Shown: positions 7,401 through 64,000 of the stretch, piece after piece | How positions within the stretch are numbered: the first letter of the stretch is position 1 | Layout: every line of letters starts with the position of its first letter | NCBI GenBank assembly: GCA_031276195.1 | Contig: JAISNN010000053.1 | Location: 38,896-102,895, forward strand | Length of the DNA: 64,000 bases | Source: Clostridiales bacterium | GTDB taxonomy: Bacteria; Bacillota; Clostridia; Christensenellales; JAISNN01 | Reading direction: 5' to 3' | Position numbers and translations under genes: made by a program | Notes under the pieces: model-generated | Told to the model about the DNA's origin: nothing | Database searches by the model: none | The model's input: the letters and a program-made list of their open reading frames with translations, nothing else

Positions 7401-7530
7401 CTCTTTGCTTTTTCATTTTTTACGCTTGTTTATCCACGATTAACCGCTTACTTTTCTATCGTTCCGCCTTTTATATTTATCAATTTTTCGTTTAATTTTT
7501 TCACGTTTTTCCGCCTTTTTTGCGGATAGT

Positions 7531-18770: not shown

Positions 18771-18842
18771 TATGTTTCTTATGCAAAAAAACTCTTTTTT
18801 TATCATTTTCATATATTTTTTATGCAAAAAAAGCCCCTTTTT

Positions 18843-34015: not shown

Positions 34016-34090
34016 GAAAACGAGAAGCGTTAGTAAAGCAAAAAGCGTTAGTAAAACAAAAAACGGAAGGGCTAAATATAGACGGCTTTA

Positions 34091-36080: not shown

Positions 36081-36348
36081 AATTCCCCTCCGTGGGAGGG
36101 GCAGGGGTGGGGCGAACTTCCCTTATTATCCTTATATTCCCCTCCGTGGGAGGGGATCAAAGGGGTGGGGCGAACTTCCATCACTTTCCTTACATTCCCC
36201 TCCGTGGGAGGGGATTCAAGGGGTGGGGCGAACTTCCCTTATTATCCTTATATTCCCCTCCGTGGGAGGGGATTCAAGGGGTGGGGCGAACTTCACTCAT
36301 TATCCTTACATTCCCCTCCGTGGGAGGGGATCTAAGGGGTGGGGCGAC
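36081..36348 (+). repeat. Hairpin plus G-tract repeat family, 5 copies, ~59-bp period
   Basis: Unit ATTCCCCTCCGTGGGAGGGGAT(T)CAA(A)GGGGTGGGGCGAACTTCCCTTATTATCCTTAT. Confidence 0.95.
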
Positions 36349-39715: not shown

Positions 39716-39924
39716 AAATTCCCCTCCGTGGGAGGGGATAAAAGGGGTGGGGCGGTCTCTCTTTACCCTTATATTCCCCTCCGTGGGAGGGGTCAAGGGG
39801 TGGGGCGAACTTCCCTTATTATCCTTACATTCCCCTCCGTGGGAGGGGATCTAAGGGGTGGGGCGAAACTTCCCTTATTATCCTTACATTCCCCTCCGTG
39901 GGAGGGGATCAAGGGGTGGGGCGG
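39716..39924 (+). repeat. Hairpin plus G-tract repeat family, 4 copies
   Basis: CCCCTCCGTGGGAGGGG(A)T(C/A)(A)AAGGGGTGGGGCG cores with a ~58-bp period. Confidence 0.95.
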
Positions 39925-40019
39925 ACTCTCTTATTTTCCGCAAAATCCCTCCGTTCGGGATAATAAAAAAAGCGTATTTAAACGCCGCAAAGTTACTAAA
40001 AGTTTTTGAAAGAGGGCGC

Positions 40020-42261: not shown

Positions 42262-42344
42262 TATAACAAACTCTTAGCGTTTCTCAAACCGTTTTACACG
42301 CCCTTTCTTAAAATCCGCCCTTAGTTTGCAATTTTTTCCCCGTT

Positions 42345-42665
42345 ATTTTAGGATTTCCGTATTAATCCGCCTTTTTTCTCGCCGTCGTTTTAGAATTCCG
42401 TATTAATCCGTCTTTTTTCTCCGTCGTTTTAGAATTCCGTATTAATCCGTCTTTTTTCTCCGTCGTTTTAAAATTTCGCTTTAATCCGCCTTTTTTTCTC
42501 CGTCGTTTTCAAATTTCGCTTTAATACGCTTTTTTTCTCCGTCGTTTTAGAATTCCGTATTAATCCGTTTTTTTCTCCGTCGTTTTAAAATTCCGTATTA
42601 ATCCGTCTTTTTTCTCCGTCGTTTTAAAATTTCGCTTAAATCCGTTTTTTTCTCCGCTATTCTGA
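42345..42665. repeat. ~40-bp tandem repeat, about 8 copies, in the clpC-comEC spacer
   Basis: Unit TCCGTATTAATCCGTCTTTTTTCTCCGTCGTTTTAGAAT with variants. Confidence 0.9.
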
Positions 42666-42669
42666 AATT

Positions 42670-45231
42670 TTAAACCTTCTTCGCTGTTTTTACCGCTTTG
42701 CGTTTGAATTGCAATCCGCCGTCCTCGTAGTCGATCGTTATATTGTCGCCGAATTTGCATTTCCCCGTTATTATATCCTCCGAAAGTCTGTCCTCGATCA
42801 TTTTTTGAATAGTTCTGCGGAGGTTTCTCGCGCCGTATTCCGCGTCGTAGCCTTTATCGACGAGGTATTCCACCGCCCGATCTGTTATGGTGATCGAGAT
42901 ATTCCGGTCTTTTAAGCGTTTGGATATATTCGCGACCATGATCCCCGCGATCTTTTTTATGTCGTCTTTGGAGAGTTTTCTGAATATGATTATATCGTCT
43001 ATACGGTTCAAAAATTCGGGTTTAAAGGTGGTTTTGAGCGCGTCCATCTGTTTTTCTTTCATCGCCTCATATTCGTCGCGTTCGCCGCCTTTACTGAATC
43101 CCAGCGCGTTTTTTATATCCGCCGCGCCGGCGTTCGACGTCATTATGATGATTGTATTTTTAAAACTGACGGCGCGTCCGTGCGAATCGGTGAGTATTCC
43201 GTCCTCCAAGATTTGGAGCAGGATATTGAACACGTCGGGGTGCGCCTTTTCGATTTCGTCGAACAGCACCACCGAATAGGGTTTTCTCCTGATTTTTTCG
43301 GTGAGTTGTCCGCCCTCGCCGAAGCCGACGTAGCCCGGCGCGGAACCGATGATTTTGCTGACGTTAAATTTTTCCATATATTCCGACATATCGACTCTGA
43401 CGAGTAGGTTTTCGTCGCCGAACATCGCCTCCGCGACCGCCTTTGAGAGTTCGGTTTTGCCCACGCCGGTGGGACCCAAGAATATGAAAGAGCCTATCGG
43501 GCGTTTGGGATCTTTGATGCCGGCGCGCGCTCTTCTTATGGCGCGCGAGAGTGATTGCACCGCCTCGTCCTGCCCTATAATTCTCTTTTTTATGACGGAT
43601 TCCAAGTTCATCAATTTTTCCGCTTCGTCTTCGACCAATTTTTTCACGGGGATAGACGTCCACGTCGAGACGATATCGGCGATTTCGTTTTCGCCGATCG
43701 CAAGTTTCGTATTCGCCATTTCCTCCCTCCAAATTTCGTTTTTCAAGCGTATTTCGACGGCGAGTTTACGTCTTTCCTCTTTGATTTCGCTTGCCTTATC
43801 AAACTCTTGTTTTTTGATCGCGGAACTCAAAGAGGCGTTTATGCCGTCCAATTTGTCCTCCAACTTTCTCAATTCGTCGGGTTTGGAATAACTTTTCAAG
43901 CGTATTCTGCTTGCCGCCTCGTCGATTAGATCGATCGACTTATCGGGCTGGAATCTGTCGGGTATATACCTGTCGGACAGCACGGCGGCGGCGTCTATCG
44001 CCTCGTCGGTGATCGTAACCTTGTGGTGCGCCTCATACTTATCCCTCAACCCTTTCAAGATGATTTTCGTATCCTCGACGTTCGGCGGATCGACCATAAC
44101 GGGTTGGAATCTGCGTTCCAAGGCGGCGTCTTTTTCGATATATTTTCTATATTCCGTGATCGTCGTCGCTCCGATCGTCTGCAATTCGCCGCGCGACAGC
44201 ATAGGTTTCAATATATTTGCCGCGTCGACCGCCCCATCCGACGAACCCGCGCCGACGATCATATGAATTTCGTCGATAAAGACGATCATATTTCCGTTTT
44301 TCATAAGCGCGCCGACCGCTTTTTTCAAACGCTCCTCAAACTCGCCGCGGTATTTCGTTCCCGCGACGACGCTGCCGATATCCAGCGAAAATATATGCTT
44401 ATTTTTCAAAGTTTCGGGAATATTCCCCGATACGATCATCTGCGCCAAGCCCTCCGCGATCGCGGATTTTCCCACGCCGGGTTCGCCGATAAGGACGGGA
44501 TTATTTTTCGTTCTGCGCGACAAGATTTGAATGACTCTTTCGATTTCTTTTGTACGTCCGATGACGGGATCGAGTTTTCCGTCGCGGGCTTTGTCCGTCA
44601 GATCCACGCCGAGCGAGGCGTAATCGGGATTTGCCCAGTCTTTTCTTTCAAATTTTTTTGCGCCGTTTTTTGTTTCGTTCATTCCCGTTTTTTTTTCATC
44701 TTCCGCATAAAACCGCGCTAACAGAAACGCGCCGGGATCTTGTTTCGCGTGAATTTCGCGAATCCGTAATTGAAAGCCCAATCCGTGAACCTCGTCCAAG
44801 ATATCGTCGTCCTCCGCGTTGTCCAAGAGGTAATTAAATGTGGAATAAGACAGAGCCGCCGCGTCTATGCCGGCATTTCTGATGATTCTGTAAGCGACGC
44901 TTTCGGTGTCTTGCAGGAGATTGAACAGCAGATGTTCCGTGCCGATAAACGACGCCTTGCTGGCGAACATCGTAACCGTCTTATCGATAATCCGCTTGAC
45001 GCGCGGCGAATAGACGAACACGCTTTGGGACTCGCCGCCGTTTTTGGGGAAAATGCGTTCTACGATCCCTAAATTCATACCGGCTTTTTTGAGGAGTTCC
45101 GCCGCCGCGCTGTCTTCGACCCTCAGCATTCCGTACAAGATATGTTCCGTCCCGATGACGCCGCCCGTCGCGCGCGCTTTTTCCTCCGCGATACGCATAA
45201 CCCTATTGTAATTCAAAGTAAATTTGTTCAT
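42670..45231 (-). CDS. clpC: ATP-dependent Clp protease ATP-binding subunit ClpC
   Basis: Clp_N repeats, two AAA+ modules (GEPGVGKS; GPTGVGKT), GAR.L.R sensor. Confidence 0.9.
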   Translation of the reverse strand: MNKFTLNYNRVMRIAEEKARATGGVIGTEHILYGMLRVEDSAAAELLKKAGMNLGIVERIFPKNGGESQSVFVYSPRVKRIIDKTVTMFASKASFIGTEHLLFNLLQDTESVAYRIIRNAGIDAAALSYSTFNYLLDNAEDDDILDEVHGLGFQLRIREIHAKQDPGAFLLARFYAEDEKKTGMNETKNGAKKFERKDWANPDYASLGVDLTDKARDGKLDPVIGRTKEIERVIQILSRRTKNNPVLIGEPGVGKSAIAEGLAQMIVSGNIPETLKNKHIFSLDIGSVVAGTKYRGEFEERLKKAVGALMKNGNMIVFIDEIHMIVGAGSSDGAVDAANILKPMLSRGELQTIGATTITEYRKYIEKDAALERRFQPVMVDPPNVEDTKIILKGLRDKYEAHHKVTITDEAIDAAAVLSDRYIPDRFQPDKSIDLIDEAASRIRLKSYSKPDELRKLEDKLDGINASLSSAIKKQEFDKASEIKEERRKLAVEIRLKNEIWREEMANTKLAIGENEIADIVSTWTSIPVKKLVEDEAEKLMNLESVIKKRIIGQDEAVQSLSRAIRRARAGIKDPKRPIGSFIFLGPTGVGKTELSKAVAEAMFGDENLLVRVDMSEYMEKFNVSKIIGSAPGYVGFGEGGQLTEKIRRKPYSVVLFDEIEKAHPDVFNILLQILEDGILTDSHGRAVSFKNTIIIMTSNAGAADIKNALGFSKGGERDEYEAMKEKQMDALKTTFKPEFLNRIDDIIIFRKLSKDDIKKIAGIMVANISKRLKDRNISITITDRAVEYLVDKGYDAEYGARNLRRTIQKMIEDRLSEDIITGKCKFGDNITIDYEDGGLQFKRKAVKTAKKV

Positions 45232-45470: not shown

Positions 45471-45800
45471 TCCTTATATTCCCCTCCGTGGGAGGGGTAG
45501 GGGTGGGCGAATCCTCTCACTTTCCTTATATTCCCCTCCGTGGGAGGGGATCAAAGGGGCGGGGTGAAACTTCCCCCACTTTCCTCATATTCCCCTCCGT
45601 GGGAGGGGATCAAAGGGGTGGGGTGAAACTTCCCCCACTTTCCTCATATTCACCTCCGTGGGAGGGGATCCAAGGGGTGGGGAGAAACTTCCCCCACTTT
45701 CCTCATCTTCCCCTCCGTGGGAGGGGTAGGGGTGGGGCGACACTTCCCCCACTTTCCTCATATTCCCCTCCGTGGGAGGGGATCAAAGGGGTGGGGCGAC
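45471..45800 (+). repeat. Hairpin plus G-tract repeat family, 6 copies
   Basis: CCCCTCCGTGGGAGGGG...GGGG(T/C)GGGG...ACTTCCCCCACTTTCCTCATATT units with a ~58-bp period. Confidence 0.95.
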
Positions 45801-52770: not shown

Positions 52771-52789
52771 TTTTTACGCTCCCTATTTT

Positions 52790-53040
52790 TTTGTTAGGCG
52801 GAATTTTTTATAGTATTTTTTTTGTTATACGGAATTTTTTATTATGTTCTTTGTTTTATTCCCGAATTTTTTATTATGTTCTTTGTTTTATTCCCGAATT
52901 TTTCATTGCGTTCTTTGTTTTTATTCCCGAATTTTTTATTGCGTCCTTTATTTTATTCCCGAATTTTTTATTGCGTCCTTTGTTTTATTCCCGAATTTTT
53001 CATTGCGTTCTTTGTTTTTATTATGTCTTTTATTTTTATG
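52790..53040. repeat. ~33-bp tandem repeat, about 7 copies
   Basis: Unit TTTGTTTTATTCCCGAATTTTT(T/C)ATT(A/G)(T/C)GTTC. Confidence 0.9.
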
Positions 53041-53100
53041 CCGTATACCCGACTCCATATCCTTTTAAAAAGTTGAGATTAAGAGTGTAAGTCCGTCCTC

Positions 53101-53255
53101 AAATTCCCCTCCGTGGGAGGGGCAAGGGGTGGGGCGAAACTTCCCTCACTTTCCTTATATTCCCCTCCGTGGAATGGGATCAAAGGGGTGGGGCGAAACT
53201 TCCCTCACTTTCCTTATATTCCCCTCCGTGGAATGGGATCAAAGGGGTGGGGCGA
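53101..53255 (+). repeat. Hairpin plus G-tract repeat family, 3 copies (2 with a disrupted hairpin arm)
   Basis: Copy 1 is CCCCTCCGTGGGAGGGG. Copies 2-3 are CCCCTCCGTGGAATGGG. Confidence 0.95.
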
Positions 53256-53462
53256 ATTTACCCGACGCTTCCAAGTGCGGGGCGTTTATATAACGCATTA
53301 TATCATACTTATATAACGTTTTTAGCGGTACTATACCGCGAAAAACAATCCGTACGGCAAGGCGCGCGGTATTATCAAAAAACTCTCGTTCCCATAATAA
53401 AAAACACCTTTTCCTCGCGGTACTATACCGCGAAAAACGTTATATAAACGCCCTACGATACG

Positions 53463-56400
53463 TCAAGCGAAATACTTCACTCCGTTTTTAAACAAATCCC
53501 CGTTCTTATCGCCGTAAACATTCTTATAAAGCCCATCGCCCGTCCTTTCGTTATGCCCCATTTTGCCCAAAATCCTTCCGTCGGGGCTGCACAAGGCTTC
53601 GACCGCCATAACCGATCCGTTCGGATTAAACTCGCCCAGCATAGTGGGATTTCCGTCGAGGTCGGCATACTGCGCGCAGATCTGCCCGTTTTCGATCCAA
53701 TTTTTCACGAGATTTTGCGGCGCGGCGAGTCTGCCCTCTCCGTGGCTCATGGCGGTATAGTGAATATCGCCCGGCTTAAAGCCGTAAAACCAGGGCGATT
53801 TATTCGACGCGATTCTGACGGGTACGATTTTCGCAACGTGCCGTCCGATCGCGTTATAAGTCAGCGTCGCCGAGCCTTCGTTTTGCGGAGTGATTTTTCC
53901 GTTCGGCACAAGTCCGCTTTTTATGAGGGCTTGAAAGCCGTTGCAAACGCCGAGGATCAGCCCGTCCCGCGCCAAAAACTCGTTTATCGCGTCTGCGGTT
54001 TTGGCGTTTCTTATGACGTTCGCGATATATTTCGCGCTCCCGTCCGGTTCGTCGCCCGCCGAGAAGCCGCCGGGGAACATAATTATCTGCGCGCTTTTGA
54101 TCTCTCGCACGAGATTGTCGATCGACTCTTCGATGACCTTAGGGGAGAGCGTGCGGAATATCGGAACGGACACTTCCGCTCCCGCGTTTAAGAACGCGCT
54201 TTCCGAATCGTATTCGCAATTCGTCCCGTAAAAGGCGGGTATAACGACCTTTGGTTTTGCGTATTTAAAAGCAGCGAACGACGGTTCCGCCGTAAAGTTG
54301 ACGGGAACGACGTTGCGTCCCAAGTCTTTTTTGCTCGGGAATACGCTCTCGAAAGTCGAACGATACGCAAGGAGAGCCTCATCCCGTTCGATTTTTTCCC
54401 CGTTGATCTCCATATATCCGCTTTCCGTCGTGCGTCCGATTTTGAGCGCGCCCGGAAAGTCTATCTCGTCTTTGGACTCGGCGGCGATCGCGCCGTAACG
54501 GAATTCAAAAAGCCCGTCCGCGTCGAAATTCACCTCGAATCCGATCCCGTTTCCGAACGACATTTTCGCCAACGCTTCGCCGACGCCGCCGAATCGAACC
54601 GCCGCCGCCGCCGATATGCTCCCCTTTTTAATTCTTTCCGTAATTTCCGAAAAGTTATCTTTCAGCCTTTCAAAATCGATGATTCCGCAGTCGTCTGAGG
54701 GCGCGGAAAAGAGGTATATATTCCGTCCCGCCTTTTTGAATTCCGCGCTTATTACGTCGTCCGTATTCACGGTTTTGACGGCGAAACTGATGAGCGTAGG
54801 GGGTACGTCTATATTTTTAAACGTGCCGCTCATAGAGTCCTTGCCGCCGATAGAGGGCAATCCTAAGGCTTGCTGCGCGGCATACGCCCCGAGCAGGGCG
54901 GCAAGCGGTTTACCCCATCTTTTTTTGTCCGTTCCGGGTTTTTCAAAGTATTCCTGAAAGGTGAAGCGTATTCCCGAAAAGCCCGCGCCGGCGGCTACGA
55001 TTTTCGCGGCGGACTCGACGACGGCATACAGCGCGCCGTGAAAGGGCGACCGCTCCGAAAGGTACGGATTATAGCCGTAGGCGGCGATACTCGCGGTTTT
55101 AGTCCGGCCCCTTACGGGCAGTTTTTGAACCGAAACGTCCGCCGGAGTCTCCTGATATTTCCCTCCGAACGGCATCAAAACCGTGGACGCGCCGATCGTA
55201 TTGTCAAACGTTTCGACCAATCCTTTTTGGCTTGCGACGTTGAATTGAGCGAGATTTTTCAAGAATTTTTCCTTTATATTTCCATTTAAATTCCGCGGTT
55301 CTATACCGCCGTTTTCGGAATACGCGGAATCCGAAAAACGTCCGTCTTTCTCACCGTCTATTCCGCCCCCCGAATTCAAAAAGCGTCCGTCTTTCTCACC
55401 GTCTATCCCCGTCCCCGAATTCAAAAAGCGTCCGTCTTTCGCGCCGTCTATTCCCGTCCCCGAATTCAAAAAGCGTCCGTCTTTCGCTTTCCTTATTTCA
55501 AAAGCGGGATTCAAAAACAACCCGTTTTTCGGCGTTCCGTTTTCCTCCTCCGCGTTCGGAAACGCTCCGTCCTTCGGGGCTTCGATTTCCGCCGCGACGC
55601 GCGCCCGAACGCCGTTCGTATTCAAAAAGTCGCGTCTGAGGTCCACGATCGGTTTTCCGCCGTATTTCATTTCGAGCCGTCCGCCGCCCGTTATTTCGGC
55701 GACGACGTCCGCCTCCAAATTTTCCTCCGCGGCGAGCGCGATAAACCTTTCCGCGTCGGCTTTATCGGTTACGACGGCCATACGCTCCTGCGATTCTGAG
55801 ATTGCGAGTTCCGTTCCGCTCAGCCCGTCGTATTTCGTCGTAACCTTATCGAGGTCGATTTTTATGCCGTCCGCGAGTTCGCCGATCGCGACGCTGACGC
55901 CGCCCGCGCCGAAGTCGTTGCATTTTTTAATCAACCGCGACGCGGCGGGATTTCTAAACAGCCGTTGAATTTTTCTTTCTTCGGGCGCGTTGCCCTTTTG
56001 GACTTCGGACGCGCTTTTTTCGGTGGAGAGGGCGTCGTGTTCTTTGCTGCTTCCCGTCGCGCCGCCTATGCCGTCGCGGCCGGTGCGTCCTCCCAATAAG
56101 ATCACGACGTCGCCCGGGGAGGGTTCTTCGCGTCTGACGTTTTCCGCTTTCACCGCGCCCGCGACAAAGCCGGCCTCCAATCTTTTCGCCGTATAGCCCT
56201 CGTGGTAGATTTCGCTTATATGCGTCGCGGCGAGTCCGATTTGATTTCCGTAAGCGGAAAAGCCTTGCGCCGCCTTTTTGGTTATGACGCGCTGAGGGAG
56301 TTTGCCCTCGATCGCGCTTGAAACGGGCGCGGTTGGGTCGCCCGCTCCGCTCACTCTCATAGATTGATAGACGTAGGCGCGCCCCGAGAGCGGGTCGCGG

Positions 56401-57797
56401 ATCGCGCCGCCGATACACGTACTCGCGCCGCCGTAAGGTTCGATCTCCGTCGGGTGGTTATGGGTTTCGTTTTTGAACTGCAAGATCCATTTTTCGACGC
56501 CGTTTTCCGTTTCCGCGTCGACGTAGAGCGAGCAGGCGTTGACCTCTCCCGAGACTTCGATATCGTTCAGCCGTCCGTCTTTCCGCATCTCCTTTCCGCA
56601 TACGGTAGCCAGATCCATAAGGGTTACCGCGCGGTTTTTCTCCTTATCGCCGTATACGTTTTTGCGGCTTCTTATATAGTTTTCGTAAGTTTTTTTAAAC
56701 AAATCGCCGTATTTTCCCTTTGGAAATTCGATTTCGGCGATCTCCGTCTCGAAAGTCGTATGGCGGCAATGGTCGCTCCAATAGGTATCGAGGACGCGTA
56801 TTTCGGTTTCGGACGGGTCGCGTCTTTCGATATTTTGGAAATACTTTTGAATGAAAGCCAGGTCCGCGGTATTCATAGCCAGCCCCATATTCTTTTTCAT
56901 CCCGTCCAATCCCTTGACGGACAACCCGTTAAAGCCCTTCAAGACGGGTACGGCGCGATCCGCGCGCGCGCTTTTGGGCGGTTCGAGGACGAAGAGATTT
57001 TTTTCGCGGCTTTCGATGGGGTTTATGACCTGTTTTTTGATAAATTCGAGATCGGACGGGCTGATTTTCCCTTCCAAAACGAAGAGTTTACCGCTCTTTA
57101 TGACGGCGTTGCCGTCGGGACGGATCAAACGCACGCACTGCTCCGCGCTGTCGCCCCTTTGGTCGTACTGCCCGGGCAAAGACTCGACCGCAAAAAAGAC
57201 CTTTCCCCTCAAATCGACGGCATTTTTTGACAATCCGCCCTTACTTCCGTCAAGCCGCTCCCCTTTGGAATAGTTTTCTCCGTTTTCGTTATGAATTTCA
57301 CCGATTTTTTGCCCTTTTCCGGCATAATTTCCGCCGTTTTTTAGTCCGTTTTCAACGTAATTTCCGCCGTTTTTTGCTCCGTTTTCAACGCAATTTTCAC
57401 CGTTTTTTATACATTTTTCGGTATAATTTTCACAGTTTTTCAGCCCGTTTTCAACGCAATTTTCACCGCTTTTTATACCTTTTTCGGCATAATTTTCACC
57501 GTTTTTTTGATTATTTTCGACGCAATTATTCCCGTTTTTTACCGATTTTTCCGCGTTAAGCGCACTTCCGTCCAAAATAATTCCGTCCGTGTACAAAATA
57601 TCCGCGGGCGGTTCCGAAAATACCGTATCGCAAGCGGCTTTAAAAACGTTCTCATCGATATTAAAAACGTCATAAATATTAATAACGCGAACGGCTTCAA
57701 GCCCCTCGATATTCAAAACCGACTTAAAATTCTCCGTCAAACCCGCCGCTTCGACGTCAAAATTCTCCTTTTTCTCAACAAAAACCCTGTAATTCAA
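53463..57797 (-). CDS. purL: Phosphoribosylformylglycinamidine (FGAM) synthase, single-chain type, with two in-frame repeat insertions; TTG start
   Basis: N-terminal PurS-like region (FVEKKENFDVEA...), LPGQYDQRGDSA, AIR-synthase-like repeats, C-terminal GATase (GVCNGFQ, ..HGEG). 1444 aa. Confidence 0.9.
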   Translation of the reverse strand: MNYRVFVEKKENFDVEAAGLTENFKSVLNIEGLEAVRVINIYDVFNIDENVFKAACDTVFSEPPADILYTDGIILDGSALNAEKSVKNGNNCVENNQKNGENYAEKGIKSGENCVENGLKNCENYTEKCIKNGENCVENGAKNGGNYVENGLKNGGNYAGKGQKIGEIHNENGENYSKGERLDGSKGGLSKNAVDLRGKVFFAVESLPGQYDQRGDSAEQCVRLIRPDGNAVIKSGKLFVLEGKISPSDLEFIKKQVINPIESREKNLFVLEPPKSARADRAVPVLKGFNGLSVKGLDGMKKNMGLAMNTADLAFIQKYFQNIERRDPSETEIRVLDTYWSDHCRHTTFETEIAEIEFPKGKYGDLFKKTYENYIRSRKNVYGDKEKNRAVTLMDLATVCGKEMRKDGRLNDIEVSGEVNACSLYVDAETENGVEKWILQFKNETHNHPTEIEPYGGASTCIGGAIRDPLSGRAYVYQSMRVSGAGDPTAPVSSAIEGKLPQRVITKKAAQGFSAYGNQIGLAATHISEIYHEGYTAKRLEAGFVAGAVKAENVRREEPSPGDVVILLGGRTGRDGIGGATGSSKEHDALSTEKSASEVQKGNAPEERKIQRLFRNPAASRLIKKCNDFGAGGVSVAIGELADGIKIDLDKVTTKYDGLSGTELAISESQERMAVVTDKADAERFIALAAEENLEADVVAEITGGGRLEMKYGGKPIVDLRRDFLNTNGVRARVAAEIEAPKDGAFPNAEEENGTPKNGLFLNPAFEIRKAKDGRFLNSGTGIDGAKDGRFLNSGTGIDGEKDGRFLNSGGGIDGEKDGRFSDSAYSENGGIEPRNLNGNIKEKFLKNLAQFNVASQKGLVETFDNTIGASTVLMPFGGKYQETPADVSVQKLPVRGRTKTASIAAYGYNPYLSERSPFHGALYAVVESAAKIVAAGAGFSGIRFTFQEYFEKPGTDKKRWGKPLAALLGAYAAQQALGLPSIGGKDSMSGTFKNIDVPPTLISFAVKTVNTDDVISAEFKKAGRNIYLFSAPSDDCGIIDFERLKDNFSEITERIKKGSISAAAAVRFGGVGEALAKMSFGNGIGFEVNFDADGLFEFRYGAIAAESKDEIDFPGALKIGRTTESGYMEINGEKIERDEALLAYRSTFESVFPSKKDLGRNVVPVNFTAEPSFAAFKYAKPKVVIPAFYGTNCEYDSESAFLNAGAEVSVPIFRTLSPKVIEESIDNLVREIKSAQIIMFPGGFSAGDEPDGSAKYIANVIRNAKTADAINEFLARDGLILGVCNGFQALIKSGLVPNGKITPQNEGSATLTYNAIGRHVAKIVPVRIASNKSPWFYGFKPGDIHYTAMSHGEGRLAAPQNLVKNWIENGQICAQYADLDGNPTMLGEFNPNGSVMAVEALCSPDGRILGKMGHNERTGDGLYKNVYGDKNGDLFKNGVKYFA
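55285..55590 (-). repeat. In-frame ~45-nt tandem repeat inside purL ((A/E)KDGRFLNSGTGIDG, about 4 copies)
   Basis: The DNA unit AAAAAGCGTCCGTCTTTC(T/G)C(A/G)CCGTCTATTCC(C/G)... and the peptide unit are both visibly reiterated. Confidence 0.9.
57213..57572 (-). repeat. In-frame 33-nt tandem repeat inside purL (KNGENCVENGx, about 9 copies)
   Basis: The peptide reads KNGNNCVENNQ KNGENYAEKGI KSGENCVENGL KNCENYTEKCI KNGENCVENGA KNGGNYVENGL KNGGNYAGKGQ ... Confidence 0.9.
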
Positions 57798-58375
57798 AGC
57801 CTTTTCCCCCGAAATTTATTTTTTGATAGTTCTAAGTTTGTGTGATGATTTTGCTTGACCGGTATGACTTTTTATCACACAGATTTAGAACTCCCTATTT
57901 TTTATACCCGGTCAATTTAATACTTTTTTCAATCCGTATCGCCCGCCCGCCCGATAAAACAACCCGAACGGAAATCTAAATACGCTATATTATTGCAACT
58001 CTTAACTTTATTTTCCGCCCGTTTTTCACTCTTTGCAAACACTGCCGCCCATCCGCCAGATAAAACAACCCGAACGGAAATCTGATATGTTATTATTGTA
58101 ACTCTTTTCGCCAAAATTTGCAATTCTTTTGCTTGCAATTTGCAAAATTCTCAACTCTTTCACGGTAAACGCCCGCTTACGGCGGATTTTTTATATGCCG
58201 GCGTGTAATTTCACTTCTCAATTTTGCCTATTTTTATTTTTAAAACTATCGACTTTTTTCGCTTTTTTCCTAAAAATCATTGACTTATTCCCAAACCTTT
58301 TCATTAAAACTATTGACTTATTCCGTTTTTTTTCCTAAAAATATTGTTTTTTCAAAAAAATTTTTTCAAAAACTA

Positions 58376-58404
58376 TTGACTTTCTCCGGTTTACCGTGTA
58401 TACT
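58376..58404 (+). promoter_or_regulatory. Sigma-70 promoter P1 (truncated module)
   Basis: TTGACT, 17-nt spacer, TATACT. Confidence 0.5.
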
Positions 58405-58447
58405 ATTATCGAAAATCAGCGGATTTAAATCCTCCTCTTTATTTCCG

Positions 58448-58476
58448 TTGACTTTCAAAATTAGATATGCTATATA
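58448..58476 (+). promoter_or_regulatory. Sigma-70 promoter P2 (drives tracr-like unit A)
   Basis: TTGACT, 17-nt spacer, TGcTATATA(AT). Confidence 0.55.
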
Positions 58477-58482
58477 ATAGAC

Positions 58483-58550
58483 TCCTCTTAAATTACTCAA
58501 CGGACTAAAATAATATGGCTTATTCCGAATTTTTCAGATAATAATCTCCT
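58483..58550 (+). ncRNA. tracrRNA-like unit A (anti-repeat plus nexus)
   Basis: The transcript would read (AGA)CUCCUCUUAAAUUACUCAACGGACUAAAAUAAUAUGGCUUAUUCCGAAUUUUU. The CUAAAAU-AA-GGCUUAUUCCG layout mirrors the Sa/Sp sgRNA scaffolds as I remember them (ACUAAAACAAGGCAAAAUGCCG; UUAAAAUAAGGCUAGUCCG). Confidence 0.4.
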
Positions 58551-58558
58551 TATTTCCG

Positions 58559-58587
58559 TTGACTTTAAAAATTAACCGTGCTATAAT
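58559..58587 (+). promoter_or_regulatory. Sigma-70 promoter P3 (drives tracr-like unit B)
   Basis: TTGACT, 17-nt spacer, TGcTATAAT (extended -10). Confidence 0.6.
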
Positions 58588-58593
58588 AGACAT

Positions 58594-58684
58594 ATCTTAA
58601 ATAACTCAACGAGTTCAAATAATATGATTTATCCCGATTTTTAGGTAATGGCCAAACAAAAAGACACTAACGTGTCTTTTTTGC
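58594..58684 (+). ncRNA. tracrRNA-like unit B (diverged anti-repeat and nexus, terminator hairpin)
   Basis: Homologous to unit A over about 110 bp. It reads AUCUUAAAUAACUCAACGAGUUCAAAUAAUAUGAUUUAUCCCGAUUUUUAGG...AAGACAC-UAAC-GUGUCUU-U6. Confidence 0.4.
58659..58684. terminator. Bidirectional intrinsic terminator (ends the cas operon on the minus strand and tracr-like unit B on the plus strand)
   Basis: AAGACAC-taac-GTGTCTT flanked by A5 on the 5' side and T6 on the 3' side. Confidence 0.7.
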
Positions 58685-58754
58685 GTATATAGCATTAACA
58701 TAATATCGTTTTAAATAATTTTGCATATTTTACAAGAACATAATGTCGTTTTAT

Positions 58755-59450
58755 TTATTTTCTAAAAATTTCGCATAAATCGGAGTCTATAATCAGTTCT
58801 TGAATTTCTATATTTTCGATTGTTTTTATATTAACGCTCCCGTCCTCGATTAAGATTAAGGATACGTCTTGAATTTCGCAATGCTTTAAAAACAATTTCA
58901 ATTCCTCGTTTGACAAAAATTTTGTTAAAAAAAGGAATATAAATATTTTAGTTTTTAAAAGTTCCGCGCACGCGTTGACATACGCCGTCAATTTTTCTAA
59001 CAAGCGTTTATAGTTTTCTTTTAATTCAAGCGAGAACAATTTAAAAACGCCGCCCGCATCGCAATCTTCGTTTAAAACGACGTCGTACCCGACGTCCGTA
59101 CTGATTTTTTTGCAAAAACAATACAATTCCTCGACTTTACTTTTAAATTCGTACTCATATTCGGGTTCGGCGGTTATCGCGCCGTATTTTTTATATAGCG
59201 CGGTTATGAGTTTTTTTGAATTCAGCGTCAAGCCGGGCAAATTCGTTTCGATCCGGCAAAATTTTTGAATCGATTGTTTTTCGTATTTTTTATCGGTCAA
59301 TAGAAAGCCGCTCTCTCCTCCCTCGCAAGCCTCCGTCAACTCGCTCAGGTACGACCACAACTTGCCTTTATTTTCTATGCTTACGACGGTCGCTCTGCCC
59401 GAAAAAACTTCCGGCGTATTCTCCCAGTCGTTATGCTTAAATAAAAACAT
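58755..59450 (-). CDS. csn2: Type II-A CRISPR-associated protein Csn2
   Basis: 231 aa, last gene after cas2. The C-terminal half (KIFIFLFLTKFLSNEELKLFLKHCEIQDVSLILIE) parallels S. pyogenes Csn2 ([34 protein letters not shown], from memory). Confidence 0.7.
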   Translation of the reverse strand: MFLFKHNDWENTPEVFSGRATVVSIENKGKLWSYLSELTEACEGGESGFLLTDKKYEKQSIQKFCRIETNLPGLTLNSKKLITALYKKYGAITAEPEYEYEFKSKVEELYCFCKKISTDVGYDVVLNEDCDAGGVFKLFSLELKENYKRLLEKLTAYVNACAELLKTKIFIFLFLTKFLSNEELKLFLKHCEIQDVSLILIEDGSVNIKTIENIEIQELIIDSDLCEIFRK

Positions 59451-59527: not shown

Positions 59528-59848
59528 CTAATATTCTGTCCATCTTTTGTCCGAATCCAAAATTTTTGTCTGTCCCTTGCCCGCCATATATTCGATATCC
59601 GCGTATTGTTTTTCGGTGATCTCGATACATTGGACAAGCCCGTTTTGCGGAACGTTTTTGCGGAGCAGAGCCTTAACGCTTTCAGCTTGCGTTCCGTTCA
59701 AAGCAAGTTTTGAATAGACGGAATATTGCTGCATAATAAAGCCGTTTTTTATTAAAAATTTATGAAATCCGCGATAAGCCTTGCCGTCGTTCGACGTGAG
59801 CGTCGGCAAATCAAAAAACACTAAAATCCTCATATATCTGTATCTCAT
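59528..59848 (-). CDS. cas2: CRISPR-associated endoribonuclease Cas2
   Basis: MRILVFFDLP...KAYRGFHKFLIKNGFIMQQYSVYSK is the canonical type II Cas2 pattern. Confidence 0.9.
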   Translation of the reverse strand: MRYRYMRILVFFDLPTLTSNDGKAYRGFHKFLIKNGFIMQQYSVYSKLALNGTQAESVKALLRKNVPQNGLVQCIEITEKQYADIEYMAGKGQTKILDSDKRWTEY

Positions 59849-59972
59849 ATCTTTCCGATTTTATCCGCCGTTTTATTGTGCGTTCATAAGCATAGCGGAC
59901 AAACCAAAAAGCCGCAATTCCGCATATCTATACCGCGCGGCCGTCGACTTTTACTAACGCAATTCCGCATAC

Positions 59973-60839
59973 CTATATCGCGTAACCCTCGACCATTACT
60001 AACTCGTCCGTCTCGCCCTTCATAAACCTAAGCGCGGAACGGACAAAAATTTCGCATGCGGAATCCAAATAAAATTCCCGTTTTTTAATCGTTATTTTCA
60101 TAGAAAGAAGTTTACTCGCCTCCGATTTAAAATCGTCGTCCTTGCAATACGTGATGACGAAATCGTCCGTGAGGGGACGGAAAACCTCCATTAAGTCGCA
60201 CGCCAAATTATATTCGTTAAACTGATTTTCGTGCCGGATTCCGAGCGCGTTTATATAGCCCGAAGCGGTTACGCACCTTGCGATTTCGCTCATCAAAACC
60301 GCGTAGGCATAATTTAGGGCGGAATTTATCCGCCCTCCGTTTCTTCTCGAAAAATTAACTCCGAATAAGGAATTAAAATAGACTTTCGCCGCGTGTCCCT
60401 CACGGTTTGTCGCGTCGTTTTCCGTTATCTCCCCGATGTATTTTTTTAACATATCGGCGGATTCCGCTTCGTTGTATTTTTCCAAAACTCTCATTTGCCA
60501 AAAAATCTTTTGCGAAACGATTTTCCTCCATAAAGCGGATTTTTTGTCCGCGTCCCAACGCGACTGCGTTTTAATATTCCCGCTGCTTCCGTAATTCGCG
60601 CTGAAAGGCGTCAATCCCGCGTACGGCATATGCTTTTCGTTGCAAAACACGACGTTTACGTTGGCGTTTAAAAGTTCCAGCAACGCCTGACAGGTAACGG
60701 CGCAACCGGTGGATTCGACAATCAAGGCGTCGATTTCCGAAATATTACACCACTTTTCCTCGTCGCCGCGTATAATCAAATATCCGAGTCTGGTTTCAAG
60801 TTTAGCCCTGTTTTTGACGACTATCGTTCTAAATCCCAT
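59973..60839 (-). CDS. cas1: CRISPR-associated endonuclease Cas1 (type II)
   Basis: 288 aa. REGHAAKVYF, NSALNYAYAVL, GIRH...N.YNLACDLMEVFRP motifs. Confidence 0.9.
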   Translation of the reverse strand: MGFRTIVVKNRAKLETRLGYLIIRGDEEKWCNISEIDALIVESTGCAVTCQALLELLNANVNVVFCNEKHMPYAGLTPFSANYGSSGNIKTQSRWDADKKSALWRKIVSQKIFWQMRVLEKYNEAESADMLKKYIGEITENDATNREGHAAKVYFNSLFGVNFSRRNGGRINSALNYAYAVLMSEIARCVTASGYINALGIRHENQFNEYNLACDLMEVFRPLTDDFVITYCKDDDFKSEASKLLSMKITIKKREFYLDSACEIFVRSALRFMKGETDELVMVEGYAI

Positions 60840-60992: not shown

Positions 60993-63900
60993 TTACGTTT
61001 CTTTATAACCGCAACCCTTAAAAGGATAGATCTGCGTCCGCTTAGTTTTGACGCCCGTAACCGATTCTTTGATCATAACCAGCGGCGCGTCTATCTTTGC
61101 GCTTCCCGTAAACCTGCCGAACGAACCGCTCGCGCCGATATCCGACAGATTCCCGCGTCCCGCGCCGCTTTTCAACACTTTCATAAGTTCCGCCAATATT
61201 TTTATTTGGGAGATTATGTCCAAGTCCTTAAATTTGTCCGCGTGTTCGCCGGTCAGTTTTCCGTACAATACCTTATTTCCCTTATAAATATTTTTTTCCA
61301 ACTGCGCCTTGATTTCGTTGAACAAATCAAGGTTCAACCGCTTGCTTATCGTTTGTTTTTTTGTGTTGTTTACGCCGTCGCCCGAAACGGTTATTTCGGT
61401 CTTATCCTTTACTTCGTTCTCTTTGAATATTTTCGCCTCTACGTACTTCTTATATTTCGCGAGCAGTTTTATATATTCCGCGGCGAAACCGCTTGCGAAC
61501 CACTCGACGGCGTTATGCCATTCGACGAACCCCGCCAACCTGACGGGAGTCCCGGACATCTCGAACAATGTATATTTATAGACCTTGGACGCGATGATTT
61601 TAGGATTTACAAGCCCGCAATCCTCACTCAAAAACTTCAAAGCGTCTTTTTCGATTCGGCTTTTGTCCAAAATCGGAACGGAAATAAACGTCCGCTCTTG
61701 AAATTCGCATTTTTTCTTGCCCTCGTTTTTTGTAACGGTATGCTCCGCGATCATAAAATACGCGGGGTTTTCGCTCTTAAAATACCCGTACTTCCGCATA
61801 TCGCCGCGCGGATTTTTATCACAGCCCTTTATCGGGACGGCGGCGTCTTTAATTTTTTTGAGTCCTCCGCCTTCTTTAAATTTCTTTTGCTTTACTTCCA
61901 CGCCGTAAATGGTTTCGTCATAGAACGCGCCCTTGTTTTCGACGACCTTTTTCGTGACGGTATAATACGGCTTCGATACGACGCCCTTTACGGTCTTTAT
62001 CGTCGGAGAGTTATCGAGCCATTCAGCGAATCCGCGCCGATATTCGTCCATAGCCCGCCGATATTGATCTTTATCGGGAAAATTCTCCTCTTTCGGTCTT
62101 ATGGGTTTCGGCGCGGAGTTAGCGCGCCAAGCGTCCTTAACGTTGTATTCAAACAGATGGTTTTGGTTATATTGCGCGAATTTATCCTCTTCATTTTTCC
62201 ACAAATTTATGTTATGATTAAAGCGTTCGTTATAGACGTTGCCCACTACGATATTCAAATACGCGTCGTAGGCGTGGTGCAAATCGTTTACGTCGCGGCA
62301 TTTTATTATATTGAATTTTTGACGGAAATCGCCGACGTTTCCGCCTTTGCTGTAAACGATTTCGGGTTTTTTGTTCGGCTGTTCGCCTTTTTTCGTAGAA
62401 GGTGTCTGTTCGACGCCGAATTTTCTCTTAAAAAGGCTTGCGGCAAGAATCGCGGACTGTCCCGTAAAATTTAACTGACGCGCGAGAAAGTTTTTTATTT
62501 CGTCTTCCGTCAACTCCGTAGTGCGCGTAAGCCTGTCAAATTTTTCAACCGAAATCAATTTTGCCTTTTTCCACGCCGCCCACATCGGCGTTAATTTCGA
62601 TATATTTTTATAAATCTCCTCGGTTTTTATTAACGGATATTTGTCGCTTTTTTTGTTGTTTAAGTCTTTTCTTACCAGCGCTTTGTTGTCAAGACTGCCG
62701 TCTTTTCTAAGCGTACGCGGAATGATATGATCTATATCATAAATATTATCGTCGTCTAAATTTTCAATTTTGATCGGTTCGCCGCTGTAAGCGCACTTGC
62801 CGCATTGCGTAAAATACAAAAATAATTTTTCTTTGCGAAGCCGCGAATCGCTTTGCTTTTCCAATTCCTTTTCCAATTCCGCGATGCCGATATCTTGTTT
62901 TTTGATCTCTTTATAAAGTTCTTTGATTTGTTCTTTTCTTGTCTTTGTCCGTTTGCCCTTCTTTTTATCGCCGGATTTTCCCTTCTTTTTATCGCCCGTT
63001 TCTCTCGTAACCTCGATAAAAATTTTGTCGGGAATTCTGCCCTCGTTGAGATCGATCAACTCGCCGCAAACTCTACACGCTTCCCAAACCGCCCTCTTGA
63101 CGCTCGGCGCGCCGTAACTTTCCTCGATGTCCGCGTATGAAAATCCGCCGTTTGAGTTTCCGTTCATTTGAGCCAGCGCATTTTGGATATTGTATTTGGA
63201 GTCATATAAAATTTCCATAAGGTTTTCGTTGGTATTCCATAGCAGATTTATGATCGAAGTATATTCCCCCGTTACCCCGTCCGAGACGAACTCCTCCGTC
63301 AAAAACCTCTTGCTCAGCCTGCCGAACGCCGATCCGTTTAAGCCTTTCAAATCCTTTATAATACCGTCCGGGATCGCCGCGTATTCTTTTTTTATTTTCC
63401 GGACAAGCATATCCTTATCGGAAAGCAACGCCCGCCATAAAATTACGTTTTCGATTATTTCGACGGCATATTCCTCCGGGATTTTGCAAGTCTCTTTCAA
63501 TTTTTCTACAATCGGACGGGAACAAATATGCGGCGAAAGCGAAGAATTAAAGCCCTTGCCGTCCTTATCGAATCCGGACAAATCCTCCGCCGTCAAACTC
63601 TTGTCGACCTTTACGGTTAAATATTTCAAAAGCCTGTTCGCGGTGATATTTTTCTCCTTTAAAAACAAATCGTTATATATATTTTGCTTTAATTGAACGT
63701 CGATTTTGCTTCCGCGGATTTTAACGTTATTGAGTTCGTTCAAAACGGCATATTTGCTATAAAAAAGCGAATATTTTGGCAGCACGTCTTCGGCGCGGAT
63801 ATAAGTACACTTCGCCAGCATACGCCGGATAAAATTCTCCGCGCTTTTGTCCTCGTCGATAACGCTATCAAACGTCCAAGGCGTAATCTTTACGCCGTTG

Positions 63901-64000
63901 ATTTTTCTCTCCGCCCACACGTGGCGTTTTCCGTCCGGATTGTAGACGTTCAGCCTCCCCGCGTAAAACGGAACTCTAAACGTCAGCAAGGAAATTATCT
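60993..64000 (-). CDS. cas9: Cas9 (type II-A), partial: N-terminal ~440 aa lie beyond the window edge
   Basis: FRVPFYAGRL matches SpCas9 FRIPYYVGPL (about residue 445). RuvC-II IFIEVTRE, HNH YDIDHIIPRT..LDNKALV..LNNKKSDKYP, RuvC-III NDLHHAYDAYLNIVVG. The reading frame stays open to position 64000. Confidence 0.9.
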   Translation of the reverse strand, partial: IISLLTFRVPFYAGRLNVYNPDGKRHVWAERKINGVKITPWTFDSVIDEDKSAENFIRRMLAKCTYIRAEDVLPKYSLFYSKYAVLNELNNVKIRGSKIDVQLKQNIYNDLFLKEKNITANRLLKYLTVKVDKSLTAEDLSGFDKDGKGFNSSLSPHICSRPIVEKLKETCKIPEEYAVEIIENVILWRALLSDKDMLVRKIKKEYAAIPDGIIKDLKGLNGSAFGRLSKRFLTEEFVSDGVTGEYTSIINLLWNTNENLMEILYDSKYNIQNALAQMNGNSNGGFSYADIEESYGAPSVKRAVWEACRVCGELIDLNEGRIPDKIFIEVTRETGDKKKGKSGDKKKGKRTKTRKEQIKELYKEIKKQDIGIAELEKELEKQSDSRLRKEKLFLYFTQCGKCAYSGEPIKIENLDDDNIYDIDHIIPRTLRKDGSLDNKALVRKDLNNKKSDKYPLIKTEEIYKNISKLTPMWAAWKKAKLISVEKFDRLTRTTELTEDEIKNFLARQLNFTGQSAILAASLFKRKFGVEQTPSTKKGEQPNKKPEIVYSKGGNVGDFRQKFNIIKCRDVNDLHHAYDAYLNIVVGNVYNERFNHNINLWKNEEDKFAQYNQNHLFEYNVKDAWRANSAPKPIRPKEENFPDKDQYRRAMDEYRRGFAEWLDNSPTIKTVKGVVSKPYYTVTKKVVENKGAFYDETIYGVEVKQKKFKEGGGLKKIKDAAVPIKGCDKNPRGDMRKYGYFKSENPAYFMIAEHTVTKNEGKKKCEFQERTFISVPILDKSRIEKDALKFLSEDCGLVNPKIIASKVYKYTLFEMSGTPVRLAGFVEWHNAVEWFASGFAAEYIKLLAKYKKYVEAKIFKENEVKDKTEITVSGDGVNNTKKQTISKRLNLDLFNEIKAQLEKNIYKGNKVLYGKLTGEHADKFKDLDIISQIKILAELMKVLKSGAGRGNLSDIGASGSFGRFTGSAKIDAPLVMIKESVTGVKTKRTQIYPFKGCGYKET

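Follow-up and report, generated by a model that had tools for sequence, protein, structure and literature searches.

The type II-A CRISPR/Cas locus described here is an unusual architectural variant of a well-known system and not a new kind of system. It lies in a 64-kb stretch of DNA, the whole of which was analysed and which we call the window, and it carries downstream of csn2 two tandem tracrRNA-like units, A and B, on the plus strand. According to the explanation that we favour from the sequence, unit B is probably the working tracrRNA, unit A is a decaying copy, and the leader and the array have been lost from the site. We infer in this way the transcription of units A and B, the identity of the active copy and the fate of the array.

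The genes that border the tracrRNA region are the following.

53463-57797, minus strand: purL (FGAM synthase; TIGR01857, 1698 bits), which bounds the 957-nt intergenic region
58755-59450, minus strand: csn2, the type II-A signature gene (TIGR01866, 110.9 bits)
59528-59848, minus strand: cas2 (TIGR01573, 67.4 bits)
59973-60839, minus strand: cas1, type II (TIGR03639, 268 bits)
60993-64000, minus strand, continuing past the window end: cas9 (TIGR01865, 541 bits), with its C-terminal 1001 codons inside the window

The order cas9-cas1-cas2-csn2 on the minus strand is that of a type II-A operon. The matches to the NCBIfam equivalog models are all above the cut-offs, and the scores of Csn2, Cas2, Cas1 and Cas9 bear out the operon recognized in the original prediction. 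The full-length Cas9 (P0007) has 1516 aa and intact RuvC-I (GLDLGT), RuvC-II (IEVTRE), HNH (DIDHIIP...N) and RuvC-III (HHAYDAY) motifs. Its closest relative, from the locus L006 (Cas9 P0008), is 54% identical, and no relative with a higher Cas9 identity was found in the databases searched. The nearest relatives of Csn2 are 47-49% identical, and a Csn2 scan of genome contigs gave a sole match (L001, 49% identity). The four cas ORFs are uninterrupted and have a host-like G+C content of 43-45%, versus about 30% in the relatives, which argues for a long residence of the operon and for continued selection. On the other side of the intergenic region, the N-terminal part of PurL has the character of a true FGAM synthase N-domain.

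Unit B is predicted to be the genuine tracrRNA of this locus. It comprises the following elements.

58559-58587, plus strand: P3, the promoter of unit B, TTGACT-17-TGcTATAAT (11/12 matches plus the TG extension)
58594-58684, plus strand: unit B, predicted tracrRNA of about 91 nt, found with an nhmmer profile of relatives' tracrRNAs
58594-58620, plus strand: anti-repeat of unit B, with upper stem (58596-58610), bulge GAG (58611-58613) and lower stem TTCAAAT (58614-58620)
about 58618-58636, plus strand: nexus region
58637-58643, plus strand: U-rich linker
58644-58653, plus strand: hairpin 1, of 3 bp
58658-58682, plus strand: terminator, a 10-bp stem followed by a T run

The nhmmer profile was made from the relatives' tracrRNAs only. 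It matched unit B over model positions 4-91 of 94, with E=2.7e-8 when three relatives were used and E=1e-7 when four were used, and units A and B aside it had no match in the 64 kb. Unit B shares 86% identity over 51 nt with the tracrRNA of L006, its anti-repeat aligns column for column with the repeat-pairing anti-repeats of the relatives, and its lower stem, CGAGTTCAAAT, is identical in all four relatives aligned. The same alignment reverses one point of the original prediction, which had called the anti-repeat of unit B diverged: in the lower stem, unit B has the ancestral form and unit A the diverged one. Unit B also has the nexus, the 3' hairpin and the Rho-independent terminator of a tracrRNA, and the fold of 58658-58682 agrees with the earlier assignment of the hairpin and U-run terminator to this unit. 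Its hairpin 1 is weaker than those of the relatives (-2.3 versus -4.9 to -6.0 kcal/mol); in the MAFFT alignment of the relatives the hairpin 1 stems lie out of register. A search of Rfam (release 15) at E<=10 gave neither a tracrRNA-type match nor any other credible family match. The same was true of the L006 tracrRNA, which pairs with its repeats, so this negative result is uninformative for the lineage.

Judged by its match to the consensus, unit B has a putative promoter of its own. P3 is among the best promoter matches of the window, and about 7 nt separate its -10 box from the anti-repeat that follows, as in the relatives. The position of the tracrRNA, downstream of csn2 and on the opposite strand, is no anomaly in itself: L006 is arranged alike, with a leader and a 2-repeat array after csn2 and the tracrRNA beyond them on the opposite strand, and a place downstream of the array is a typical one for anti-repeats (PMC3737331). 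In the relative L004 the 10 kb upstream of cas9 contain no tracrRNA, and in L008 the 442 nt that are available on that side contain none.

The sequences that precede unit B are more heterogeneous.

57901-58106, strand not assigned: two direct repeats of about 106 nt with the core GATAAAACAACCCGAACGGAAATCT (families D2 and D7), in the purL upstream region
58240-58367, plus strand: 64/32-nt tandem reiteration with TTGACTTATTCC motifs (families D1 and D4)
58376-58434, plus strand: P1, or copy 0, a promoter-like TTGACT-17-TATACT (10/12) followed by the 12-nt palindrome GGATTTAAATCC
58448-58478, plus strand: P2, the copy of the promoter that precedes unit A, TTGACT-17-TATATA (alternatively TATAAT after a spacer of 19 nt)
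58483-58549, plus strand: unit A, a partial tandem tracrRNA paralogue, found by nhmmer and by identity to unit B
58482-58511, plus strand: anti-repeat of unit A, with upper stem (58487-58501), bulge GGA and lower stem CTAAAAT (58505-58511)
58536-58547, plus strand: hairpin-1 equivalent of unit A, AGATAATAATCT (fold -0.6 kcal/mol)

Units A and B are the two homologous modules of about 110 bp that had been noticed originally, and this homology is firm: 58435-58474 and 58546-58585 are 85% identical (family D5), 58473-58533 and 58582-58642 are 80% identical (family D3), and the global identity of the two units is 74%. Their description as tracrRNA-like also stands, with the precision that unit B is a full-length homologue of the relatives' tracrRNAs and unit A a homologue of their 5' half. 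The profile matched unit A over model positions 3-54 only (E=0.039 with three relatives, E=0.01 with four). The copy includes the promoter, the anti-repeat, the nexus and the first hairpin and nothing further. The 3' hairpin that every relative possesses is missing, as is a terminator, and the copy runs into the promoter of unit B. What had been read as its U5 terminator is the linker between nexus and hairpin, a U-run that the relatives conserve after the nexus (CCAAUUUUUAAAG). At the CGAGTTCAAAT site unit A differs at four of five consecutive bases. Its promoter P2 carries a 2-nt TA insertion relative to unit B, which damages the -10 box; P2 failed at the -10 box in the promoter scan and is absent from its list. 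The claim of three near-consensus promoters holds in part, for P3 and P1. Promoter-like sites are not enriched in the region, six having been found versus 4.8 +/- 2.8 expected.

The most likely status of unit A is that of a decaying paralogue, or at best of an accessory one. It is not obviously dead, given that nexus and linker are retained together with a small equivalent of hairpin 1 whose changes appear compensated, as well as, in the upper stem, an ancestral U that is A in unit B. The changes of unit A cluster in the lower stem and the bulge instead of being evenly spread, a pattern that could reflect functional divergence.

The original prediction had extended the module over the whole 0.75 kb as one amplified and partly decayed tracrRNA unit. 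Kinship is demonstrable for 58435-58690 only, and the similarities of the remainder lie around p~0.01. Both the 106-nt direct repeats and the 32/64-nt reiteration are present as described. On the plus strand the former show a marginal similarity to the -10/TSS region of unit A (p~0.008); comparison with the tracr module by nhmmer gave no significant match (E=12), so that of the weak resemblance claimed earlier a marginal one is left, and the kinship of these repeats to the module is doubtful. The 64/32-nt reiteration has a marginal similarity to the segment of A and B that leads from the nexus to the next unit (Smith-Waterman p~0.012). Copy 0 may be another copy of the module, the third, with an internal deletion, seen by eye only; its similarity to units A and B is not significant beyond TTGACTTTC (p=0.38). 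By nhmmer, neither the reiteration nor copy 0 matched the module significantly. Altogether, the 957-nt spacer contains four separate tandem duplications. Local duplication seems to be a habit of this genome, as the window holds 27 tandem arrays with a period of at least 25, about 18 of them intergenic. Reiteration of promoters as a general trait of these arrays was considered and rejected, such sites being found in only one other array (13064-13272).

A leader and an array normally follow csn2 directly, and five relatives have them at this place. Neither was found within the window, which ends inside cas9. Repeat finding, TRF and a k-mer chain search detected no repeat/spacer periodicity in 57798-58754 or in the rest of the 64-kb window. 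The search for the predicted repeat that had been proposed as a check returned nothing in the 64-kb window, either exactly or with 3 mismatches, and the predicted repeat together with those of the relatives had no match there even with up to 12 mismatches. The original observation that no array lies downstream of csn2 is thereby confirmed by all of these methods. A leader profile built from six relatives likewise found no match or remnant in the 64-kb window. The place that the leader and array occupy in the relatives corresponds here to a short gap:

58683-58754, strand not assigned: 72 nt separating the tracrRNA terminator from the csn2 stop codon

This gap contains a 40-nt tandem duplication (family D6) and, by approximate matching, no repeat-like sequence. 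A metagenome scan with GTTGAGTWATTTAAGA gave at least 120 single chance matches. For none of the matches listed did nhmmer or blastn show homology to the region, and none of them was an array of either repeat type. Patterns of the repeat and tracr types had 0 matches in viral contigs. It seems somewhat probable that an array exists elsewhere, outside the window; that the array was lost recently is a serious possibility. A complete loss would be a small step, because arrays in this family can be minimal, with two repeats in L006 and one in L002.

A plausible scenario for the favoured explanation can be outlined. The downstream, antisense position of the tracrRNA would have been inherited from an arrangement like that of the closest relative, in which a leader and a short array lie between csn2 and the tracrRNA. 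The leader and array between csn2 and the tracrRNA would have been lost in the lineage of the window, and the local duplication process would have tandemly duplicated a segment of about 110 nt containing the promoter, anti-repeat, nexus and first hairpin. Unit B would be transcribed from the strong P3 toward csn2 and would end 72 nt before the csn2 stop codon at a bidirectional terminator, and an RNA of unit A, if made, would read through into unit B. The tracrRNA of unit B would pair with pre-crRNA repeats of the predicted form GTTTGAGAGTTGAGTTATTTAAGA..., the duplex would be processed by RNase III, and Cas9 would then be loaded. An array belonging to unit B, outside the window, would show a ATATTTTCAAAATTTGAG-like leader followed by repeats starting with GTTTGAGAGTTGAGTTATTT.

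The absence from the 64 kb of any leader, repeat or repeat-like partner also fits a rather unlikely alternative, in which the locus is a decaying remnant: array and leader would have been deleted recently, the cas genes would not yet have acquired lesions, and both tracr copies would be relics. The reduction of the relatives' arrays to one or two repeats, the weak hairpin 1 of unit B and the churning of the spacer by four tandem duplications are consistent with it. However, the uninterrupted cas ORFs, the intact catalytic motifs of the 1516-aa Cas9, the quality of P3 and the perfect terminator of unit B argue against a relic, and an array may lie upstream of cas9, beyond the end of the window.

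Pairing between tracrRNA and repeat bears on a second alternative. The tracrRNAs of the relatives pair with the repeats of their own arrays in a single geometry, a 7-bp lower stem, a bulge and an upper stem of 16-17 bp, with duplex energies of -18.6 to -26.3 kcal/mol, and the repeats of all six relatives are of the GTTTGAG type. Since the duplex of this family has a bulge between its stems, the repeat cannot be an exact reverse complement of the anti-repeat, from which it had originally been predicted; more generally, an anti-repeat without its array does not yield the repeat by simple reverse complementation. A repeat starting GTTTTAG..GTTGAGTAATTT is predicted to suit unit A and not unit B. 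Two hypothetical repeats that differ at 2 positions each fit one unit in the geometry of the family: GUUUGAGAGUUGAGUUAUUUAAGA fits unit B (-24.2 kcal/mol) and GUUUUAGAGUUGAGUAAUUUAAGA fits unit A (-23.9 kcal/mol), and in the cross pairs the lower stem is lost (-16.7 kcal/mol). Both units might be functional tracrRNAs for two repeat variants, carried outside the window by two arrays or by one array with mixed repeats, the duplication having given rise to two anti-repeats that are partly orthogonal. The nexus, linker and hairpin-1 equivalent still present in unit A agree with this, a type II-A locus of Lactobacillus gasseri likewise carries two anti-repeats that are not identical (PMC3737331), and second tracrRNAs have been proposed (bioRxiv 10.1101/2020.09.02.279885). 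We nevertheless regard it as unlikely. No array of either type was found in the window, among the metagenome matches listed (at least 120) or in viral contigs, unit A has neither a terminator nor the 3' hairpin of the relatives and its -10 box is impaired, and GTTTGAG repeats are the rule in all six relatives. Decidedly unlikely is the related proposal that two co-expressed and partly orthogonal tracrRNAs (B of the ancestral GTTTGAG type, A of GTTTTAG type and devoid of 3' hairpins) enable one Cas9 to use two repeat variants, or that the truncated RNA of unit A acts as a modulator or decoy of crRNA loading, the adaptation module being kept in full and the array being elsewhere or absent.

A regulatory use of Cas9 resembling that of tracr-L or scaRNA had also been suggested. 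In such a system without an array, the tracrRNA, or a long read-through isoform from P1 or P2, would pair with a scaRNA-like RNA or a non-canonical crRNA of the host. The stacked P1, P2 and P3 could yield long isoforms, the RNA from P1 to the terminator folds better than shuffled sequences (z=-4.1), cas9 is intact although an array is lacking locally, and scaRNAs regulating Cas9 occur near type II-A loci (bioRxiv 10.64898/2026.06.01.729453). Still, neither anti-repeat has a repeat-like partner: the strongest pairing with upstream sequence amounts to 8 bp and -12 kcal/mol (p~0.03), versus -19 to -26 kcal/mol for natural pairs, and the folds of the long isoforms contain no helix of the repeat:anti-repeat kind. 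A duplex scan for a scaRNA-like partner across the window returned only the units' own antisense and one chance ORF site; this best partner, at 37814 (-22.1 kcal/mol), lies inside a 300-aa ORF, has the wrong geometry and was rejected. The cas9 promoter, the expected target, is outside the window, and intact cas1-cas2-csn2 genes argue for a role in adaptive immunity. We regard the regulatory reading as highly improbable.

If unit A is functional, the locus would show the duplication of a tracrRNA and the divergence of its anti-repeat caught in the act, which would bear on the co-evolution of tracrRNAs with repeats and on the origin of orthogonal guide scaffolds. The locus would also add a new lineage of Cas9 (1516 aa) whose tracrRNA is compact, at about 91 nt. 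If unit A is non-functional, the locus would indicate that a II-A system can drop its leader and array and keep cas9-cas1-cas2-csn2 together with the tracrRNA, and that tandem duplication throughout a genome can remodel a CRISPR locus.

Among known systems, the natural single guide tracr-L was reportedly described by Workman in 2021. The window resembles it in that long isoforms are possible and in that the elements adjoin a type II-A operon. In contrast, tracr-L and the scaRNAs carry a part that resembles the repeat and pairs with the anti-repeat, as well as a short guide to the cas9 promoter. The window has no such repeat-like part, and unit A differs from them in having the same sense as unit B. 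With the canonical type II-A tracrRNA (Deltcheva 2011; Chylinski 2013, PMC3737331), unit B shares a promoter of its own, by prediction, and a location near the cas operon; as in the S. pyogenes type, the 5' anti-repeat ends in ..AAAU, and after it come a nexus (..GGCU.A.UCCG-like), 3' hairpin(s) and an intrinsic terminator. The canonical locus likewise contains csn2, but its tracrRNA lies upstream of cas9, whereas that of the window lies downstream of csn2. The presence of two differing anti-repeats in a single type II locus is shared with L. gasseri, where they have been read as intermediates of duplication or relocation (PMC3737331). In L. gasseri one copy precedes cas9, the other lies between cas9 and cas1, and the locus has an array, whereas the copies of the window are head-to-tail, include promoter copies and have no array nearby. 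Second, alternative tracrRNAs have been proposed in type II loci (bioRxiv 10.1101/2020.09.02.279885). The closest likeness is to L006, from an uncultured member of the Bacillota (Logan SRR23925013_14032), which shares with the window the order cas9-cas1-cas2-csn2, a tracrRNA that lies downstream, on the strand opposite to csn2 and convergent with it, and the make-up of this tracrRNA, with anti-repeat, AU-rich nexus, U-rich linker, small hairpin and terminator. The upper stems of the two differ (CACTAC in L006, CTCAAC in the window), and where in L006 a conserved leader and a 2-repeat array accompany a single tracrRNA, the window has no leader or array and carries a tandem partial copy of the tracrRNA instead.

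The genes csn2, cas2, cas1 and cas9 lie on the minus strand from 58755 to beyond 64000. Their NCBIfam scores, all far above the cut-offs, identify a type II-A operon. Although cas9 extends past the window edge, the full protein (P0007, 1516 aa) retains all the RuvC-I/II/III and HNH catalytic motifs. The G+C content of the cas genes (43–45%) is host-like (window ~46%) while that of their relatives is ~30%, and such a composition argues for a long residence in the host genome. A 45-nt tandem duplication (59913-60003; two copies, 82% identical) covers the 3' end of cas1 and the cas1–cas2 spacer. A direct-repeat search of the 957-nt csn2–purL intergenic region (57798-58754) revealed four separate tandem duplications, listed here together with purL:

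53463-57797, minus strand: purL, the next gene after the cas operon, on the same strand as csn2
57901-58106: ~106-nt units (repeat families D2, D7), tandem duplication
between csn2 and purL: 64/32-nt units (D1, D4), tandem duplication
58435-58690, plus strand: ~110-nt units (D3, D5) with unit A (58483-58549) and unit B (58594-58684), tandem duplication
at the csn2 stop codon: 40-nt units (D6), tandem duplication

None of the four is built like a CRISPR array, with repeats alternating with unique spacers. The original observation that array periodicity is missing after csn2 was borne out, and it extends to the entire 64-kb window, in which no CRISPR-like array was detected.

The relatives found through Csn2 and Cas9 searches are all distant (Csn2 47–49% identity, Cas9 at most 54%). 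In L001, L002, L003, L004, L006 and L130, csn2 is followed by a conserved leader ending ..ATATTTTCAAAATTTGAG and then by repeats beginning GTTTGAGAGTAGTGTAATT. L001, L003 and L130 carry the tracrRNA ahead of cas9, on the other strand; none was found within 10 kb upstream of cas9 in L004 or in the 442 nt available in L008. The closest Cas9 relative, L006, has the order csn2, leader, two-repeat array, opposite-strand tracrRNA, rpsB. Each anti-repeat in the relatives pairs with the repeat of its own locus (-18.6 to -26.3 kcal/mol), and the duplexes share one layout: 7 bp in the lower stem, 16–17 bp in the upper stem and, between them, a bulge of 1 nt in the repeat and 3 nt in the anti-repeat. These loci have peculiarities of their own. 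In L002 (5070-6553) only one repeat of the array is left, with a partial repeat (GTTTGA) ahead of it and, directly after it, a phage-type integrase and prophage-like genes, which suggests integration at or beside the array. Between csn2 and the leader of L001 (10720-10890), a consensus promoter and a terminator flank ~150 nt of structured sequence that is richer in G+C; together these may represent a small RNA or riboswitch-like element. L004 carries three tandem ~120-nt units ~1.4 kb upstream of cas9 (8260-8600), each with a terminal hairpin GTGATACT..AGCATCAC.

Judged by its sequence, unit B is the predicted tracrRNA of the type II-A locus. A profile built from the relatives' tracrRNAs only matches 58600-58684 (+) over practically the entire model (nhmmer; E=2.7e-8 with three relatives, 1e-7 with four), and blastn aligns unit B with the L006 tracrRNA at 86% identity over 51 nt. 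The anti-repeat core ACGAGTTCAAATAA is identical to that of all relatives in the alignment, and is followed by an AU-rich nexus, a ..UUCC(A/G)A..U-rich linker, a small hairpin and a terminator. Its promoter site P3 is of the near-consensus extended -10 type (11/12 + TG), ~7 nt ahead of the anti-repeat. With just 72 nt between it and the csn2 stop codon, the terminator (A5-stem-T6) can presumably end both convergent transcripts. Rfam gave no credible match for unit B, and none for the L006 tracrRNA either.

Unit A is, on alignment, a partial tandem paralogue of unit B (74% identity over ~111 nt, 80–85% in blocks). What was duplicated starts ~15 nt ahead of the -35 box and reaches the first hairpin; only unit B has a terminator. 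In unit A the relatives' profile matches 58490-58541, and there no more than model positions 3–54 (nhmmer; E=0.039 and 0.01). Several details had been read differently. The U5 run taken for the unit A terminator is instead a linker that the relatives also keep (L006 has CCAAUUUUUAAAG), so that the predicted transcript from P2, the unit A promoter site, most likely passes a weak counterpart of hairpin 1 (AGAUAAUAAUCU, -0.6 kcal/mol) and continues into unit B. P2 itself, described as near-consensus, is weaker: it has a TA insertion in the -10, is absent from the promoter scan list, and reads either as TATATA without the conserved final T or as TATAAT with a 19-nt spacer. Nor is the unit B anti-repeat the diverged one; it is unit A that departs from the family in bulge and lower stem (GGA-CUAAAAU versus GAG-UUCAAAU); unit B is derived at one upper-stem position (AAAUAAC versus AAAUUAC). 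Both units share the derived CUCAAC replacing CACUAC, which places the duplication later than the divergence of this lineage's repeat.

An amplified, decayed tracrRNA module is demonstrable for 58435-58690 only, and not for the remainder of the region to which it had been extended. A profile of units A and B found no significant match in 57800-58434, and Smith–Waterman comparison with shuffling gave per-test p~0.012 for 58240-58359 against the nexus-to-next-unit segment, p~0.008 for the plus strand of the 106-nt repeats against the unit A -10/TSS segment, and p=0.38 for the putative copy at the promoter-like site P1 (58376). The 106-nt repeats, which have CCGAAC cores and a minus-strand promoter-like site (TTGCAA-17-TACAAT), may equally be part of a purL control region; 57901-58195 may be this or an unannotated small transcript. 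A terminator-like plus-strand hairpin (58173-58195) follows them. Directly upstream of the purL start, an inverted repeat without a match to any Rfam family (57828-57892; a 27-nt loop between 19-nt arms of 89% complementarity) is probably an operator or a structure in the 5' UTR. Inside purL, an in-frame 33-nt tandem repeat (57296-57541, minus strand; ~7.5 copies of 11-aa ENGxKNGENYV-like units) lies at the boundary between the N-terminal domain and the remainder of FGAM synthase.

Tandem duplication is not restricted to this region. The window holds 27 tandem-repeat arrays of period at least 25 (9% of bases; ~18 outside long ORFs, and one the in-frame repeat of purL), which makes local tandem duplication characteristic of this genome; as a rule the arrays lack promoter-like sites. 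Examples, together with the loci of a dispersed family, are:

7003-7413, 21689-21921, 42332-42710 and 52786-53067: tandem-repeat arrays
34089-34373, 36082-36347, 39718-39939, 45471-45796 and 53096-53256: the five loci of a dispersed family

The dispersed family consists of tandem 58–59-nt units (106-nt at the first site) that have ATTCCCCTCCGTGGGAGGGG...GGGGTGGGG, a hairpin with G-runs, in common. Crude coding density is ~73%, and the intergenic DNA is unusually repeat-rich for a bacterium. A full-length OLE (ornate large extremophilic) RNA lies at 18840-19463 (-) (355.8 bits, E=6.6e-101) and assigns the source to anaerobic or extremophilic Bacillota.

Guide partners were sought throughout the window. 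A profile of six relatives' leaders detected no leader remnant there; with many mismatches allowed, the 64 kb still contains no copy of the relatives' repeat and no further match to the predicted repeat, the reverse complement of the anti-repeats. In public collections, the predicted repeat or tracrRNA gave chance matches or none among the matches listed. A window-wide duplex scan returned only the units' own antisense and one -22 kcal/mol site, rejected for its wrong geometry and position inside a 300-aa ORF.

The best-supported scenario starts from an L006-like ancestor with csn2, leader, short array and antisense tracrRNA. Leader and array would have been lost from the csn2–tracrRNA site, and a tandem duplication would have copied the tracrRNA module's 5' two-thirds, with unit B still in use as the tracrRNA and unit A either accessory or in decay. 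We lean slightly towards a cognate array outside the window, because cas9-cas1-cas2-csn2 is intact, P3 strong and the terminator perfect. Alternatively, units A and B might each serve one of two repeat families: in computed duplexes, hypothetical repeats differing at two positions each fit one unit and cross-pair poorly, which leaves this reading a low probability. For the suggested tracr-L-like or scaRNA-like use there is no such element in the sense of the literature: the longest pairing between the anti-repeats and the sequence ahead of either unit is 8 bp (-12 kcal/mol).

Our limited literature search found no type II-A locus that lacks a local array and has tracrRNA copies arranged head to tail, each with a promoter; we therefore rate the architecture (tandem tracrRNA copies, no local array) as new, the underlying type II-A system being known. 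Second tracrRNAs have been suggested in other loci (bioRxiv 10.1101/2020.09.02.279885). Downstream of the array is one of four typical tracrRNA/anti-repeat locations in type II systems (PMC3737331), comparable to the opposite-strand tracrRNA after csn2 here, and two non-identical anti-repeats are on record for the type II-A locus of L. gasseri (PMC3737331).
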